A stretch of 64,000 nucleotides of DNA, from contig JAHDID010000006.1 in the NCBI GenBank assembly GCA_020630975.1, forward strand, positions 91,182-155,181, in the 5' to 3' direction. The position numbers were made by a program, and so were the translations under genes. The notes under the pieces were generated by a model. It did not search any database. It worked only from the letters and a program-made list of their open reading frames with translations, and was not told the origin of the DNA. Source of the stretch: Verrucomicrobiota bacterium. GTDB taxonomy: Bacteria; Verrucomicrobiota; Verrucomicrobiia; Verrucomicrobiales; DEV007. Shown piece by piece: positions 26,727 to 33,134 of this stretch. Numbering within the stretch: position 1 is the first letter of the stretch; the number at the start of each line of letters is the position of its first letter.

Positions 26727-26986
26727 GGTGACCGTTAGGGAACGTAACCCGGGTAGTCAAATTGCGGCCAAGAAGCGGCTCTACCCTCGCGGAAAATCTA
26801 TAGGTAAATATAGCGAAAATCATTCCTTTGCCTGGCCAGAGAATCACATTGTTATTTTCGATATCACCCCACCTAACCCCAACGGACGGGAGGAATGATA
26901 AATCCGTCCTGCCTTTTACGCGGAAATATAAAAACGGCAGAATCCGGACCGCCCTAAGATATGGTTGTCAAACTTTTCTGATCTCT

Positions 26987-28669
26987 ATGAATTGCATTCT
27001 CCTTCAGACACTTTCGACACGGTCTCTCCAGATCGTTGCTGCGATCTTTCTTTCGCTGTCAGCTTCCGCCGCCGACCGGCCAAACATTCTGTTCATCGTT
27101 TCCGACGATCATGGCTGGGGTGATTTGCCGTCGAATTGGGACGAGACCGAAGTGCAGATGCCGACTCTCGATAGACTGGCTGCCGGTGGGGTGCGGTTTA
27201 CCAACTACCACACAGTCCCGCTCTGCGCACCGTCTCGCGCCTGTATGTTCACCGGCCAAAACTCATCCGAAAACGGTATGTGGCGGGGGCCGGGAGGCGT
27301 TCCCGGCGAGCATGGTTACAAAGGCATTAAACGAAATGTCACCATGCTGTCGGAGCACCTTTCGAAGGCTGGTTACCAAACCGGGGGATTCGGCAAATGG
27401 CACATGGGCTCGATCGAAGGCGAAGCGCCCAATGACCGGGGTTTCGATGAATATCGCGGCTTCATGAGTGGGACTCATGGGTATTGGGTTACCGAAAAAC
27501 GGTCAAAGATTCTGCATAATGGAAAACCGGATGATGCCACCGGTCACACCACCGAGTTATTCACCGAATGGGCTGAGCAATTCATTCGCCAGAGCGCCGA
27601 CGATGAAGAACCGTTTTTCTGTTACCTCGGTTACAACGCAGTGCACGGTCCGATCCGGACTGACGAATCGAAACCTGCTTCCGCACCGGAAGAGTGGGTG
27701 AACAAAGCCCTTGACCGGGGTGTCAGTTTTTTGCGCAGCGACTATGTCGCCATTCTCGAACACATGGATCACCACATCGGTCAGCTGATCGACCTACTGG
27801 ATGAACTGGAGATCGCCGAGAATACGCTGGTCGTCTTTGTCAGTGATAACGGTGGCTGCGTGATGGAGGGTGATGCACCGGGTGGCAGATACCCCGCCAA
27901 CAACGGACCACTGCGCGGCAGTAAGGCATCGACCTGGCAGGGCGGTCTGAATGTCCCGTTCCTTATGCATTGGAAAGGCCACATTCCCAAAGGTACCGTC
28001 TCCAGCGCACAAGTGATGCACGCAGACATCTTTGCGACCCTGCTGGACGCAGCCTCAATTCCGGTTCCGAAGATGAATGGAAATAATCCCGTGCGCGGAT
28101 TGTCGCTGATGCCACACATGCTTTCGGCCGGTAAACAATCAATCCCTGCGCGCACCATGATCTTCGATCTATGGGGAAATATCGGACTGCGGAAAGGCAA
28201 CTACAAACTCTGGGCCGATGCCGGGCGAGACGCGACTCCGGATTGGCAAGCGCTCATCGCTGATATCAAAGCCACAGATCTGGCACTCTACGATCTCAGT
28301 CAGGATGTTGGAGAGGAGAACGATCTTCGAACCAAAAAACCGGAACTCTACACTTCGCTCAAGGCTGAACTGATCGACTACTTCTCCGGGATCGACGATG
28401 AGTATCCCATTCCGGAAACTATAGGGGAAGCCGAAAAGAAAAGCCCGCCCGCAAAGCCGAAGACCGAAGCGCCCAAGTCAAAATCACGGTCAATCAATCC
28501 CGAGAAGTTCCTCAAGTCCCGCGACAAGGATGGCGATGGAGCGCTGTCCCTGATAGAGTATACCCAGAAACCGATAGAGGCAGCACCCGCTCGAACCAAA
28601 ATTTTTCAGGGCCTTGATACCGACAGCAATGGCAAGCTAACGCTGGAGGAACTGAAGAAATCTCTATAA
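26987..28669 (+). CDS. Exported formylglycine-dependent sulfatase (S1) with C-terminal EF-hand pair
   Basis: RPNILFIVSDDHGWGD, CAPSR, GKWHMG; DKDGDGALSLIEY and DTDSNGKLTLEEL loops. Start moved to ATG 26987. Confidence 0.92.
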   Translation: MNCILLQTLSTRSLQIVAAIFLSLSASAADRPNILFIVSDDHGWGDLPSNWDETEVQMPTLDRLAAGGVRFTNYHTVPLCAPSRACMFTGQNSSENGMWRGPGGVPGEHGYKGIKRNVTMLSEHLSKAGYQTGGFGKWHMGSIEGEAPNDRGFDEYRGFMSGTHGYWVTEKRSKILHNGKPDDATGHTTELFTEWAEQFIRQSADDEEPFFCYLGYNAVHGPIRTDESKPASAPEEWVNKALDRGVSFLRSDYVAILEHMDHHIGQLIDLLDELEIAENTLVVFVSDNGGCVMEGDAPGGRYPANNGPLRGSKASTWQGGLNVPFLMHWKGHIPKGTVSSAQVMHADIFATLLDAASIPVPKMNGNNPVRGLSLMPHMLSAGKQSIPARTMIFDLWGNIGLRKGNYKLWADAGRDATPDWQALIADIKATDLALYDLSQDVGEENDLRTKKPELYTSLKAELIDYFSGIDDEYPIPETIGEAEKKSPPAKPKTEAPKSKSRSINPEKFLKSRDKDGDGALSLIEYTQKPIEAAPARTKIFQGLDTDSNGKLTLEELKKSL

Positions 28670-28904
28670 AAAAATTTCAGGATCAATCGATACAGCCATG
28701 ATGAAGCGTATCATTCTTCTCCAACTCCTGATCCTAGTCATTCATAGTGACAGGCGAATTGAAGAGAAAATATTTCCAGCACGTTAGCCCAGCCGGGTCC
28801 GTGTGCTACCACAATCTGTCTTGTGATCCCCCTTTCTAGACGTCACATATCCCAACCGAATAACGGGACCTCTCTTACACATCCCAAAACGACAGACTCG
28901 GGCA

Positions 28905-28942
28905 ATTGCACCCTATTCAGTCAAAACAGTACCCTATTGAAT
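28905..28942 (+). repeat. Dispersed 21-bp-period repeat, locus 3 (2 degenerate copies)
   Basis: ATTGCACCCTATTCAGT and CAGTACCCTATTGAAT; CCCTATT cores at 28911 and 28932. Confidence 0.8.
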
Positions 28943-28999
28943 TTGCCCTGCACACGACTCACCCGCTCTGGCTAAGGCATTTGAGGGAGATTATTTCTA

Positions 29000-29123
29000 G
29001 CAGATCAAGGTCGGCGCCGTCAAGCCCTCACCCGCTCCGTGTTGACATCGCCAAGTTTAGGGCCACTCTACACATGTAATCTGGCCTCAGCCCACAAGGG
29101 CTGACAGGCCTTTCACGTTCGGT
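29000..29123 (+). mobile_element. attC-like integron cassette recombination site 1 (degenerate R'' box)
   Basis: GCAGATC-N6-GGC[G]CCGTCA[A]GCCCT ... AGGGC TGACAG GCC-N6-GTTCGGT; two extra bases on the left arm; ATG 5 nt downstream. Confidence 0.68.
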
Positions 29124-29128
29124 CGGAA

Positions 29129-29401
29129 ATGAGGAGATATATACTGTTGGCGGCACTTTGTGGAGGGATGTTTGGATTGTGCCTCAGCAAGGTGGGTGAG
29201 AGCCAAAGGCGATCCAACCGAATCATTGAATTACAAGAAGCGATTCTTGCCAACCCAGATGATAATGACAGTCGGGAATTGCTTGAAAGCTACGATTCGA
29301 GAAGGCCATATTCTATGCATACAGTTGTATTGTTTTTTGCTGCTGGTTCAGCGTTTCTTGTCGGGTGTCAATACTTCGGTGCGAAGTATAAGTCCAACTG
29401 A
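29129..29401 (+). CDS. Small cassette-like membrane protein
   Basis: 90 aa with 2 hydrophobic segments, AT-richer codons, lies between two attC-like sites. Confidence 0.6.
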   Translation: MRRYILLAALCGGMFGLCLSKVGESQRRSNRIIELQEAILANPDDNDSRELLESYDSRRPYSMHTVVLFFAAGSAFLVGCQYFGAKYKSN

Positions 29402-29416
29402 TGGTGCCTATCTTGC

Positions 29417-29545
29417 AGAAGACCAAACCGCGTCTGGTAAGGACTATATTTTCGGAGTTTGAACGTGACTTTACCTCGGTTTCGTCTACTCTTCGGGAGA
29501 GCGTTTCGGCCCGGTGGCCGTCCTACCAGCGCTCAGACGTTAGTC
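29417..29545 (+). mobile_element. attC-like site 2 (degenerate R'' box)
   Basis: AGAAGAC-N6-GCG[T]CTGGTA[A]GGAC ... GTCC TACCAG CGC-N6-GTTAGTC; same geometry as site 1. Confidence 0.68.
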
Positions 29546-29556
29546 CAAAAAATTGC

Positions 29557-29976
29557 ATGGCATCGCGCCTGAACACAAAGACACCGATCGTGCGATTCAT
29601 GGCCGAGTATCTTTCCGAATTTAAATTCGACACCGTATCTAAACCAAATCTGGTTTTTAGAGAACCGCAGGCGACTGGACTTTTCAGATGCATCGCGATC
29701 GGTCGTTCCTCTAATCCCTACGGGATCTACCCGAATTTTGCCGTGACGTACAACCGAGGTTGGGGAGGCGGGCCGGCATCGCCACTCGGGCGGGACGCCG
29801 GCATTGCAAACCTTAAATTAGATTCCCATGCAGTTCCCGCGAGCGACCAATGGATTACCTTCGAGCCGAATTCCGAAGGCCTCACTCCAGCACTGAACTC
29901 GTTCTACGAGATTTACCGCGAGCTTGTGGTGCCTGTCGCGCGTTACCCTTTGTGCTTTCATGCTATTGCCACATGA
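29557..29976 (+). CDS. Cassette-like hypothetical protein (possibly 3'-truncated)
   Basis: ATG 11 nt after attC-like site 2; the 5' extension in the ORF track is just the attC sequence. Confidence 0.55.
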   Translation: MASRLNTKTPIVRFMAEYLSEFKFDTVSKPNLVFREPQATGLFRCIAIGRSSNPYGIYPNFAVTYNRGWGGGPASPLGRDAGIANLKLDSHAVPASDQWITFEPNSEGLTPALNSFYEIYRELVVPVARYPLCFHAIAT

Positions 29977-30277
29977 ATAGATGCCCCAACTGTCGGAAAA
30001 CCTGCGATCCTATGCTATTATTAATCTGCTCGGGTTGGTCCTCTTACCTTTGTAAACATTGTGGCGCGTTGTCAGCATTTAACCGTATGCAGATGAGCAT
30101 TCTGGGAGGAATTGGAGGAGGTTTGGCTGAAAAATTAAGTTGCCTCACCTGTGTCGTCATGAAGGATGGCTGGCGGTGATCATTGTAGCCGTATCGCTCT
30201 TCGTAATCGTGACACTAGGTATGCTGCTGCTGCTCCCTTTAACCCTTAACGAGAAAACAGAGCACACCGACGCTTAG
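29973..30277 (+). pseudogene. Zinc-ribbon membrane protein, frameshifted
   Basis: MNRCPNC...CKHCG, hydrophobic GGIGGGL, then a frame change to LPHLCRHEGWLAVIIVAVSLFVIVTLGMLLLLPLTLNEKTEHTDA-TAG. Confidence 0.5.
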
Positions 30278-30373
30278 CAGCCTGTTTGCCCTTCGTAGGT
30301 CGGCATAAGGATCTAATGGCTAGCGGTCTAGTATTCGCTCGACCGCTATGCTCATTAACTTCGAAAGATCGTC

Positions 30374-30931
30374 CTAATCTTCTCGTTGGGGACGATGTCG
30401 ATCAAAGGTCAAGTGGCCGACAATGGTAGCCTCGCGCTCTACCTTTGAGAACCCACAGCGCTGAATGCAGGCGAGTGAGCGATGATTGCCGGGATGGATA
30501 TCGGCGTATAATACCTGAAATCCTGCGGTATCGGCCAAGTGAGTGACCGCTCTTGCGGCATTGGTCATGATACCCCGGTGACTCGCACTCGACCAATACC
30601 CCATCTCAGCCCGATCGAGATGGGCGCTCTTGATGTCGCAGGCTGCAGCGACTTCGCCGTAGGCATCGGTGATGATGTAGACGAAATGGGTACCCAGCCG
30701 CCACCCCTCAGAGGCAGATGCTATCCAATCCACGGCCATCTCAGGTGGATAAGGGTCTCCTTTACAAAGGGACTGAAAGCACCAGCGATACACTAATGCC
30801 TCATTACAGATCGCGGCGATCTGACAACAAACTTCAGGGGTAGACTGTATATCGCTGATCGGTTGAAGACGATACTCGGCACCGGTGAGCGCATTCTCTA
30901 TGACCAGCTGTTTTTTGAGATGCTCGATCAT
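30374..30931 (-). CDS. GNAT N-acetyltransferase (RimJ/RimL-like)
   Basis: AEMGYW....HRGIMT.A, N.RS...IQRCGF. Confidence 0.8.
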   Translation of the reverse strand: MIEHLKKQLVIENALTGAEYRLQPISDIQSTPEVCCQIAAICNEALVYRWCFQSLCKGDPYPPEMAVDWIASASEGWRLGTHFVYIITDAYGEVAAACDIKSAHLDRAEMGYWSSASHRGIMTNAARAVTHLADTAGFQVLYADIHPGNHRSLACIQRCGFSKVEREATIVGHLTFDRHRPQRED

Positions 30932-31181
30932 GCTCTGAGGTCGATAAAAAGGGCAAAGCTGAGAAATGTAGAGAGGGATAATCGTTTCATTTATAAGCTG
31001 AGGTTGTTGCCGACAACGGCCCCTCTGTTACTAAGATAGTTATGGACTAGCTAACGAATTCTACAACTATCCTCTCACGATGAAACTCCACTCGCTGACG
31101 CTCGCTGCCACATACCTCCAGCTTTCTATACTAAAGAAACATCACAACAGCAGGCTCGATAGAATCTCATAAAGGTCCCAC

Positions 31182-33080
31182 CTATTTGTTCTTCTTGGCC
31201 TTTACGGGTTCTTTTTTCTTCTTCTTTTTCGGTGGAAATAGGTCTTCGCCTTTTAGGTAGGGCACGCGACGTGGGATGTCGGCGCCTTCTGCCTGAGGTG
31301 CGAGAGCTGCGGCGTCGAAATCCTTACCAGATGGGTGGCAATCGACAAAGTAGACTAGAGAATTGAGGGCTTCGGTAGCGACGACTGCATCCGCTGTGGA
31401 ATTGATCAGCTCGACGATGGGGGTGATGGCATCGCCACCAGCGCATAGGCCGACTGCCTCTGCGGCCCTGAGACGGACGACCTCGGACTCGTCTGAAAGT
31501 AGGCCCTCAGCCATCGGTGCCAGCGCCGCAGCCTGCTCGCCAAAGCTACTGCATACCATGCAACCCCAGTAGCGGGCGATGGCATCGGTAGAGGTGAGGG
31601 CTGCCTGTAGGCCGGCTTTGGCCTCGGCAAAGGGGCGTGTCGCGAGATCGGCTATGTCGACATAGCGGGCGATCGCTGCCTTGTGCTTTTGGCCGTAGGC
31701 CACGGGATCTGCCATGGCCTGTGAGACTAGCTGACTCTCTGGGTAGAAGCTGAGATCTGGCAGTGCTTTCACCCTAGTATTTAGCCGCTGGCGCATGATC
31801 GCCAGGGTCTCGGCGTGGGCAGGATCGTCGGCGAGATTTTTCACCTCATGGGGATCGGCCTCGATGTCGAAGAGCAGCTCGACAGGCTTGCCGCGATGAA
31901 ACTGAGAGCGCACCTCATCCAATTCGCCTGCCTGATAGAGCTGGCGCCACTCCTCGTAGGCCAGCATCTTGTAGCGGTAGTTATTCTGCAAGCCATCTGG
32001 CAGCCAGTTTTGGTAGCAGCGCAGGTAGTGGTATTTACCTTTGTGCAGACTGCGGATCAGATCATACTTTTCGTCAAATCGATCGGCGTAGCAAAAGACC
32101 TCGTCGCGAGCATTCACTTGCTCCATGGTGATGCCATCGCCTAGGAATGGTGTACCATCGACGGCGGAGGAACCAGGTACGCCTGCCAGATGAAGCACGG
32201 TAGGTCCAAAGTCGATGAAGCTGACATAACCACCGACACGATCGCCGCGCTGCCCATCGACTAGGTGTTTGAAATTCTCTGGGATACGCACGACCAGCGG
32301 CACATGTACACCCGACTCGTAGGGGTAGCCTTTGCCACGTGGCAGGACACCACCATGATCGCCAAAGTAGAAGACAAAGGTATCCTCCAGCACGCCATCT
32401 GCCTCGAGCTGGGCGACGGTATTGGCGACGATGCCATCGATGGTCAGCATGCAGTCGAGATAGCGAGCATGGGTGTAGCGAAATAAATCGGTATCGGGGA
32501 AATAGTCGGCCAGCTGAACCTCTGCGGGATCGTGAGTGGTCTTATCGCTCTCGTAACTCTCCTGGCTGAAGTGCAGGCGGCCCTCGTGGGAATCGCCATG
32601 GGAGGCCATGTGGAAAAACGGCTGCCCCTCTGCCCGGTCGCGCCAGTGAGCATCGCCCGCCGACTTGTCCCACCCGGTGACGGGCTCGACATTGTAGTCC
32701 TGCTTGGATCGATTGGTGGTGTGGTAGCCCGCCTGCTGGAGATAGGTGTGCCAGAGTTTCACGTCGGCAGGGAGCTGGGCTTTCTCATAGCGACGATGGT
32801 ATTGGGTGCCAATGCGGGGTCCATAGCAGCCTGTCGCCAGTGTGGTGCGAGCTGTCGAGCAGACTGGAGCATTGGAGTAAGCGCGATCAAAGGTGAGCCC
32901 CTGAGCTGCTAGTGCCTCGATAGCGGGAGTCTTTGCCCCGCCTGGAAAGAAATGATCGAGGTAGTGGATGGAATTATCCTCAGAGACGATGAATACAAAA
33001 TTGGGCCGATCGGCACTGTGAGCGAAACTGCCTATGAATAGTAGGCACAGCCAGAGTGTGAGTTTATGTGGGTGACGCAT
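31182..33080 (-). CDS. Exported sulfatase with C-terminal HEAT-like repeats
   Basis: RPNFVFIVSEDNS, PVCSTAR, YFGDHG; RYWG...VVRLRAAEA HEAT pattern. Start moved to ATG 33080. Confidence 0.88.
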   Translation of the reverse strand: MRHPHKLTLWLCLLFIGSFAHSADRPNFVFIVSEDNSIHYLDHFFPGGAKTPAIEALAAQGLTFDRAYSNAPVCSTARTTLATGCYGPRIGTQYHRRYEKAQLPADVKLWHTYLQQAGYHTTNRSKQDYNVEPVTGWDKSAGDAHWRDRAEGQPFFHMASHGDSHEGRLHFSQESYESDKTTHDPAEVQLADYFPDTDLFRYTHARYLDCMLTIDGIVANTVAQLEADGVLEDTFVFYFGDHGGVLPRGKGYPYESGVHVPLVVRIPENFKHLVDGQRGDRVGGYVSFIDFGPTVLHLAGVPGSSAVDGTPFLGDGITMEQVNARDEVFCYADRFDEKYDLIRSLHKGKYHYLRCYQNWLPDGLQNNYRYKMLAYEEWRQLYQAGELDEVRSQFHRGKPVELLFDIEADPHEVKNLADDPAHAETLAIMRQRLNTRVKALPDLSFYPESQLVSQAMADPVAYGQKHKAAIARYVDIADLATRPFAEAKAGLQAALTSTDAIARYWGCMVCSSFGEQAAALAPMAEGLLSDESEVVRLRAAEAVGLCAGGDAITPIVELINSTADAVVATEALNSLVYFVDCHPSGKDFDAAALAPQAEGADIPRRVPYLKGEDLFPPKKKKKKEPVKAKKNK

Positions 33081-33134
33081 AGGGAGACTGTAGAGAAAAG
33101 CCCCCCACCCCGTCAAATCGCACAAATGGCACGT

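Follow-up and report, generated by a model that had tools for sequence, protein, structure and literature searches.

The window, by which we mean the whole 64-kb stretch of DNA analysed here (G000:C33:91182-155181, on the 193-kb contig C33), carries between two sulfatase genes a short run of features that consists, in order, of a truncated attC remnant, a 304-bp cassette that lacks an open reading frame (ORF), a 422-bp cassette encoding a 90-aa protein, and species-specific ORFs that no closing attC follows (Table 1). The two full attC sites, site 1 and site 2, lie on the same strand with 292 nt between them, placing two attC within 4 kb. A sequence-only reading of this DNA had described two attC-like sites of identical architecture, and every feature that it listed is found in the sequence. 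Both have a bulged L''/L' inverted repeat with the extrahelical bases on the '' arm, and spacers of 5-6 nt to the R boxes. The L arms pair at 13/13 positions in site 2; in site 1 they pair at 12/13, with a bottom-strand G-T as the remaining pair, and neither site has lost an extrahelical base. Six nucleotides separate L' from the GTT in each case (TTTCAC before 29117-29119 in site 1, with the crossover G↓TT after 29117; TCAGAC before 29539-29541 in site 2), and an ATG follows at 29129, 5 nt past the 7-nt R' of site 1, and at 29557, 11 nt past the R' of site 2. Set against the consensus inverse cores (R'' RYYYAAC, R' GTTRRRY), R' starts with GTT in both sites and each R'' is one middle-base change away from AAC. 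The earlier reading had correctly noted one change from AAC in each R'', but it took AGAAGAC (GAC, 6-nt spacer) as the R'' of site 2, where the covariance model described below and homologous sites point instead to GAAGACC (ACC, 5-nt spacer). Its inventory was also short by one: both of its sites are real, but a third, truncated attC at 28771-28819 had been overlooked.

Table 1. Features of the cassette cluster and its flanks (window coordinates; the arrow marks the crossover point)
Feature	Position	Strand	Description
Sulfatase, left flank	26828-28669		
Truncated attC remnant (site 0)	28771-28819	+	3' ~49 nt of a ~132-nt attC; 5' half missing
Cassette 1	28814-29117	+	304 bp, ORF-less; from ↓ATCTGT to TTTCACG↓; contains site 1 and the REP-like doublet
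REP-like doublet	28904-28943	+	Two ACCCTATT motifs 21 nt apart, direct, inside cassette 1
attC site 1	29000-29123	+	124 bp; R'' GCAGATC 29000-29006; R' GTTCGGT 29117-29123
Site 1 L'' arm	29013-29027	+	GGC-G-CCGTCA-A-GCCC; extra bases G and A
Site 1 L' arm	29098-29110	+	GGGC-TGACAG-GCC
Cassette 2	29118-29539	+	422 bp, between the two G↓TT points; ORF and site 2
Cassette 2 ORF	29129-29401	+	90 aa; hydrophobic stretches at both ends; cassette orientation
attC site 2	29418-29545 (29417/8 start)	+	R'' GAAGACC 29418-29424; R' GTTAGTC 29539-29545
Site 2 L'' arm	29430-29444	+	GCG-T-CTGGTA-A-GGAC; extra bases T and A
Site 2 L' arm	29520-29532	+	GTCC-TACCAG-CGC
Trailing accessory ORFs	29540-30277	+	Cassette orientation; no closing attC
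ORF	29557-29976	+	139 aa; starts 11 nt after site 2 R'
ORF	29973-30179	+	68 aa, Cys-rich (CxxC ... CxxC); start overlaps the preceding stop (ATGA)
GNAT acetyltransferase, right flank	30374-30931	-	
Second sulfatase, right flank	31182-33125	-	Beyond the GNAT gene

The truncated remnant belongs to a family of sites that have R'' GCATACC and, further on, GGGTCCGTGTGC TACCAC. Positions 28771-28812 are identical to the 3' part of the attC at C143:15838 and C158:73088, and the sequence upstream is unrelated (alignment A2). The R'-like heptamer AATCTGT occupies 28813-28819, where the crossover base has gone from G to A and A↓AT stands at 28813-28815 in place of G↓TT. A short ORF at 28699-28785, which has a signal-peptide-like start, MMKRIILLQLLILVIH, and reads on into the truncated attC, may represent what is left of the 5' part of a gene after the same deletion that shortened the site.

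Cassette 1 is the most repeated cassette of the genome, with at least five copies (in the window, twice on C143, on C131 and on C49; alignment A3), and it lies directly upstream of the protein-coding cassette 2. The copies become homologous at the base that follows the terminal G of the attC upstream (an A in the window), a different attC tail in each of the five, reading (G or A)↓ATCTG, and their homology stops exactly at TTTCACG↓, the G of G↓NT, beyond which the sequences differ. Exact boundaries of this kind behind five attC tails are what a mobile cassette looks like. The short ORFs inside cassette 1 do not keep their frame among the copies. The REP-like repeat that it contains is dispersed throughout the genome, with hundreds of blastn matches on both strands; its motif is (G/C)TACCCTATT, and TACCCTATT occurs 743 times.

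The 90-aa product of cassette 2 has neither a Pfam match nor a paralogue in the genome. Pfam searches with the 139-aa and 68-aa ORFs to its right likewise returned no match, and the 139-aa ORF had no homologue among the 57 further genomes of the genus that were compared. A hydrophobic segment in another frame continues from the 68-aa ORF to 30277, and from its sequence the stretch 29973-30277 may represent a frameshifted zinc-ribbon membrane protein. Between the GNAT and second sulfatase genes, a stretch of ~104 nt (31063-31166) has an 84% identical copy at C84 16688-16793 and short matches of 89-93% in another species of the genus; by sequence, it looks like a small dispersed repeat.

Identity of the attC sites

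We aligned 21 attC sites of this genome, zero of them from the window (alignment A1), and used them for a covariance model with 22 base pairs (R1). With R''/R' and L''/L' paired, 79.7% of the alignment cells are paired, compared with 61.9% in shuffles, and 16 of the 22 pairs show compensatory changes. The covariation score of 0.456 compares with 0.159 for shuffled alignments, 0/500 of which reach the observed value, and with at most 0.113 when the pairing partners are slid. Run over the 64-kb window with filters off, R1 returned only two significant matches, both on the + strand: site 1 at 28998-29124 (99.4 bits, E 7.5e-22) and site 2 at 29416-29546 (59.8 bits, E 1.9e-12), the next best having an E of 0.82. 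The score of site 1 is comparable to those of sites in arrays, and that of site 2 is below most of them. To the left of site 1 the model found the truncated remnant only, as a weak match at 28763-28820 (6.2 bits); in a search for a closing attC to the right of site 2, over 29900-31250, its best match was a weak one at 30255-30344 (9.3 bits).

Homology agrees with the model. Site 1 is ~90% identical by blastn to C49:39585-39712, a site ~2.4 kb from an integron integrase gene (intI) within the array linked to it, and further copies lie on C31, C131, C143 and C158. Site 2 has an 85% identical relative at L025 2632-2762 in G015, which is a different species of the genus; there R'' reads GGAGAAC and R' reads GTTGTGC. 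Sites of this type adjoin intI in that species (intI at C54:241489-242430, site at ~243131), and same-family sites at C87:38843 and C87:128881 of the present genome both carry AAC. A scan of both strands of the 7.14-Mb genome for arms of 3+1+6+1+4 bp, with bulges on the left arm, at most one mismatch and a loop of 40-140, gave 1253 matches, 52 of which, sites 1 and 2 among them, have a GTT 5-7 nt downstream. About half of these 52 are attC in cassette arrays, with the common pattern "extra G or T ... extra A ... ACGTT".

Several searches failed to recover the sites. Rfam gave no attC match over the window at the gathering threshold and nothing relevant at E<=10 over 28600-30200, and generic repeat finding across the region did not detect the bulged arms. 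When both strands of the sites were folded as DNA, the z-scores were -1.8, -0.2, -1.3 and +0.1, of which those of the bottom strands (-1.8 and -0.2) are no better than shuffles. The minimum-energy folds of the window bottom strands, which the sequence-only reading had put forward as a check on its sites, lack the attC hairpin that the C49 homologue of site 1 forms. From these z-scores and folds, energy alone neither supports nor refutes the two sites. The absence of an Rfam match, the non-significant folding and the presence of a REP-like repeat 60 nt upstream of site 1 might together suggest chance imperfect inverted repeats or members of a REP or MITE family rather than attC. Such an origin is highly improbable, given that a model trained on other sites assigns E-values of 7.5e-22 and 1.9e-12, that homologous sites separate small same-strand ORFs beside intI, that the cassette boundary rule described below holds, and that the REP-like repeat differs in sequence from the sites; on the model E-values, the intI-linked homologues and the boundary rule, we consider it contradicted. 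The sequence-only reading would have given up its attC call had there been neither covariance-model support nor relatives with intact AAC/GTT; both kinds of support were found, alongside homology to sites in the intI-linked array. Both window sites are real integron attC sites.

The central loop is usually the variable part of an attC. In this genome it is strongly conserved across several attC families (window 29037-29078; columns ~50-95 of A1), reading GTGTTGACA ... CTA(C/T)ACATGTAATC, and it is invariant in seven copies of the site 1 family. It includes a perfect TTGACA, without a -10 element at 16-18 nt. A promoter was considered both in the conserved attC core from TTGACA to CATGTAAT and in the ORF-less cassette, and was not supported: a consensus scan returned no sigma-70-like site that satisfied its criteria in either.

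Integrase and cassette arrays of the genome

No integron integrase was found on the 193-kb contig C33 in a six-frame search with TIGR02249, read through stops at E<=0.001, not even as a pseudogene frame. The earlier statement that an integrase is absent is thus true of the window and of its contig but not of the genome, which carries one full-length and apparently intact intI, recovered by the genome-wide search that the same reading had proposed. This gene (C49:36260-37198, minus strand) scores 334.9 bits against the NCBIfam model TIGR02249, for which the cut-off is 265, and contains no stops. Its product aligns over the full length with VchIntIA (PDB 2a3v; 7e-63), including the stretch aligned to residues ~190-245, which we take to be the integron-specific extra segment. 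Downstream of this intI lie about twelve small same-strand ORFs split by repeats of ~95-134 nt that begin with GCAGAAC or GCCTAAC and end with GTTCTGC or GTTAGGC, and R1 finds 13 same-strand attC sites there (L007 12387-17805). By its sequence, this is a classical cassette array beside an apparently intact intI. A 538-aa ORF comes directly after the final attC of this array, close to where the contig ends (L007 18191-19807; C49 44421-46037).

Genome-wide, where the sequence-only reading had suggested looking for further copies of the arms, R1 matched 61 sites at E<=0.01. Thirteen are those on C49 and 36 lie in contig-end arrays (C131, C132, C143, C158 and C87), which may belong to a single large array that assembly broke up; the remainder form small mid-contig clusters (C33, C31, C25, C57 and C84) or stand singly. 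Integron integrases above the curated cut-off occur in 24/41 genomes sampled from the genus. In one near-complete relative (G033), a search of 40 kb to one side of intI found no array.

Crossover triplets and cassette boundaries

Triplets were tabulated for 57 of the 61 R1 matches, four partial or short ones being left out. The R'' triplet is AAC in 29, ATC in 16 and ACC in 6, and the R' triplet is GTT in 31, GAT in 14 and GGT in 6. The ATC and ACC variants of R'' together account for 22/57 sites, including 4/13 in the intI-linked array. The first bases of an integrated cassette derive from its own circular attC. At 27/41 junctions between consecutive sites, the 6 nt after the G of R' of one site are the exact complement of R'' of the next, whereas permuting the partners 20000 times yielded 3.0 perfect junctions on average and never more than 11. 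In the intI-linked array, 11/11 junctions are perfect. GAT is followed by ATC at 10/11 junctions and GGT by ACC at 3/4, while the middle base of R' agrees with that of the R'' in its own site at only 15/41, with six sites of the C49 array mismatched. This complementarity places the crossover at G↓NT and assigns the middle base to the downstream cassette. Because a cassette takes its middle base with it, the ATC and ACC triplets are best regarded as cassette-borne variants carried through recombination, not as marks of decay. The ATC-bearing ORF-less cassette, moreover, is found behind the attC of AAC-type cassettes, which implies that unlike triplet classes have recombined together.

We give about even chances to the reading that G↓TT, G↓AT and G↓GT form a natural crossover polymorphism, in which the 5' end and the R'' of a cassette share one variant and cassettes of unlike class stand next to one another. 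In the arrays beside intI of two other species (G010 and G015), R'' is AAC in 15/16 sites and AGC in one, and R' is GTT save for one GGT and one box misread through an alignment shift; the polymorphism may be recent and lineage-specific. An enzyme change was considered as the cause of the variant triplets and is not supported at the one residue position checked: the C49 integrase conserves the lysine in contact with the middle base (K160 in VchIntIA; the K160-G161 equivalent). In experiments with IntI1, any base change at position 2 of GTT was tolerated, and a match to the partner site was not required there (Frumerie et al., PMC2811028). The situation here is similar in that the attC position 2 that could be changed there without loss of recombination is the one that varies, with G↓AT and G↓GT cassettes adjoining G↓TT cassettes, but differs in that the earlier work concerned engineered sites and IntI1, whereas the present variants are natural, frequent (22/57 R'') and cassette-borne.

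The altered triplets had led the sequence-only reading to propose that the window sites can probably no longer recombine. That argument is unsupported, as the same ATC and ACC occur in the intI-linked array, where they are matched by GAT and GGT at the preceding junction. Some erosion of the cluster is nevertheless plain: the left site is truncated and has an A at its crossover, and the 5' boundary of cassette 2 is mismatched, its first bases (TTCGGT) matching the complement of its own R'' at only 2/6 positions. In the integrated state, the R''/R' middle bases are mismatched in both window sites (ATC against GTT in site 1, ACC against GTT in site 2). It is possible that the cluster is partly frozen. 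A stronger proposal, to which we give well under even odds, is that both sites are attC by descent, have lost the ability to recombine, and form a dead array remnant. The truncated left site with its A↓AT junction, the failure of cassette 2 to follow the junction rule, the last ORFs without a closing attC, the middle-base mismatch in both sites, window folds that lack the hairpin formed by the C49 homologue of site 1, and the score of only 59.8 bits for site 2 all fit with a frozen relic. Against this, mismatched middle bases are common genome-wide, including in the intI-linked array; the ATC-bearing cassette has spread with exact boundaries to at least five contexts; the L arms and the two extrahelical bases of each site are preserved; site 1 scores like array sites; and IntI1 tolerates changes at position 2 of GTT (PMC2811028).

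Discussion

The window locus is an element of a known kind, a cluster of attC sites lacking integron integrases (CALIN). At least two attC lie within 4 kb of each other, and no integrase or integrase pseudogene was found within 4-10 kb or anywhere else on C33; the locus is not a complete integron, in which intI, attI and Pc lie beside the array, as intI is on C49 and the neighbours of the window array are a sulfatase gene to the left and GNAT and sulfatase genes to the right. With high confidence, we interpret the sequence from 28771 to 29545 as a small cassette cluster without a neighbouring integrase, a CALIN, whose attC belong to the same families as those of the C49 array. The CALIN-like label of the sequence-only reading is supported. 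Like the CALINs described by Cury et al. (2016; PMC4889954), the cluster has at least two attC on one strand that are closer than 4 kb to each other, neither intI nor a recognisable pseudogene of it in the vicinity, an integrase elsewhere in the genome, as is the case for about half of the published CALINs, and a cargo of unknown function. It differs from them in being very small, with two full sites and a half site, and in having a left border that is visibly a truncated attC, which points to an origin by deletion or rearrangement.

Resemblances to other integron systems are partial. As with the VCR repeats of the Vibrio cholerae superintegron, a sedentary chromosomal integron, the attC of this genome are long (~125-134 nt) and alike, including in their central part, and as in integrons of that type there are many sites in one genome (61 model matches) and integrases are common in the genus; unlike in those integrons, several sequence families coexist here and the middle base of the triplet is polymorphic. 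Cassette 1 recalls the gene-less cassettes with promoter activity (PMC11014356; PMC6557892) in that it lacks a conserved ORF, is the most repeated cassette and lies upstream of a coding cassette, but it differs in having no sigma-70-like promoter in the consensus scan and in carrying a REP-like doublet.

If the sites behave as other attC do, the bottom strand of each would fold into a hairpin in which R''/R' and L''/L' are paired and two extrahelical bases project from the '' arm, and IntI would cut between the G and the next base of R'. The C49 integrase could act in trans on the window sites, in which case recombination between site 1 and site 2 would excise cassette 2 as a circle. In this genome the middle base (AAC, ATC or ACC) is a heritable cassette property rather than a lesion, and the cluster itself is most likely a piece of an array, cut off or shortened by a deletion whose end lies within an attC, in which erosion has begun.

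Such a fragment of a separated or truncated array is the most likely origin of the cluster, and the break-up of arrays by deletion or rearrangement is one of the proposed origins of CALINs (PMC4889954). A half attC at the left border favours an array cut in this way and argues against a clean insertion at a secondary site. Instead of array break-up, IntI might have inserted cassettes at a secondary genomic site, in an attG-type event. Experiments have shown that IntI can insert cassettes off-site (bioRxiv 10.1101/2022.09.11.507474), isolated attC or small clusters are found mid-contig at C31, C25, C57, C87:38843, C34, C39 and C79, and the window locus lies between unrelated sulfatase genes. 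We nonetheless consider this origin unlikely, as the left border is a half attC and not a genomic G followed by the 5' end of a cassette, which a clean insertion would not leave; the right side, too, lacks a closing attC, and no empty site was recovered in relatives. A search for an empty site or for synteny in 30 relatives found none: only individual sulfatase genes match (65-86% identity), and their neighbours differ. The failure to recover an empty site is explained by the loss of synteny beyond single sulfatase genes.

In conclusion, the CALIN in the window is an ordinary one, and little is gained from it other than its correct annotation. It does bear out that this sulfatase-rich genus regularly has integrons whose attC families are large and homogeneous and which are accompanied by many satellite clusters. 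The five-copy ORF-less cassette, with its exact boundaries, is a convenient candidate for probing the role of gene-less cassettes. The genome-wide triplet polymorphism is the more interesting by-product: nature supplies here a set of sites whose AAC/GTT middle base varies and goes with the cassette, which is relevant to the stringency with which integron integrases recognise their cleavage site, as well as to how attC detection tools and calls of "decay" should treat non-canonical triplets. If the polymorphism is what it appears to be, integrase recombination in the wild would proceed with non-GTT triplets and between unlike triplets, as a natural, array-scale counterpart of the relaxed requirement of IntI1 known from engineered sites.
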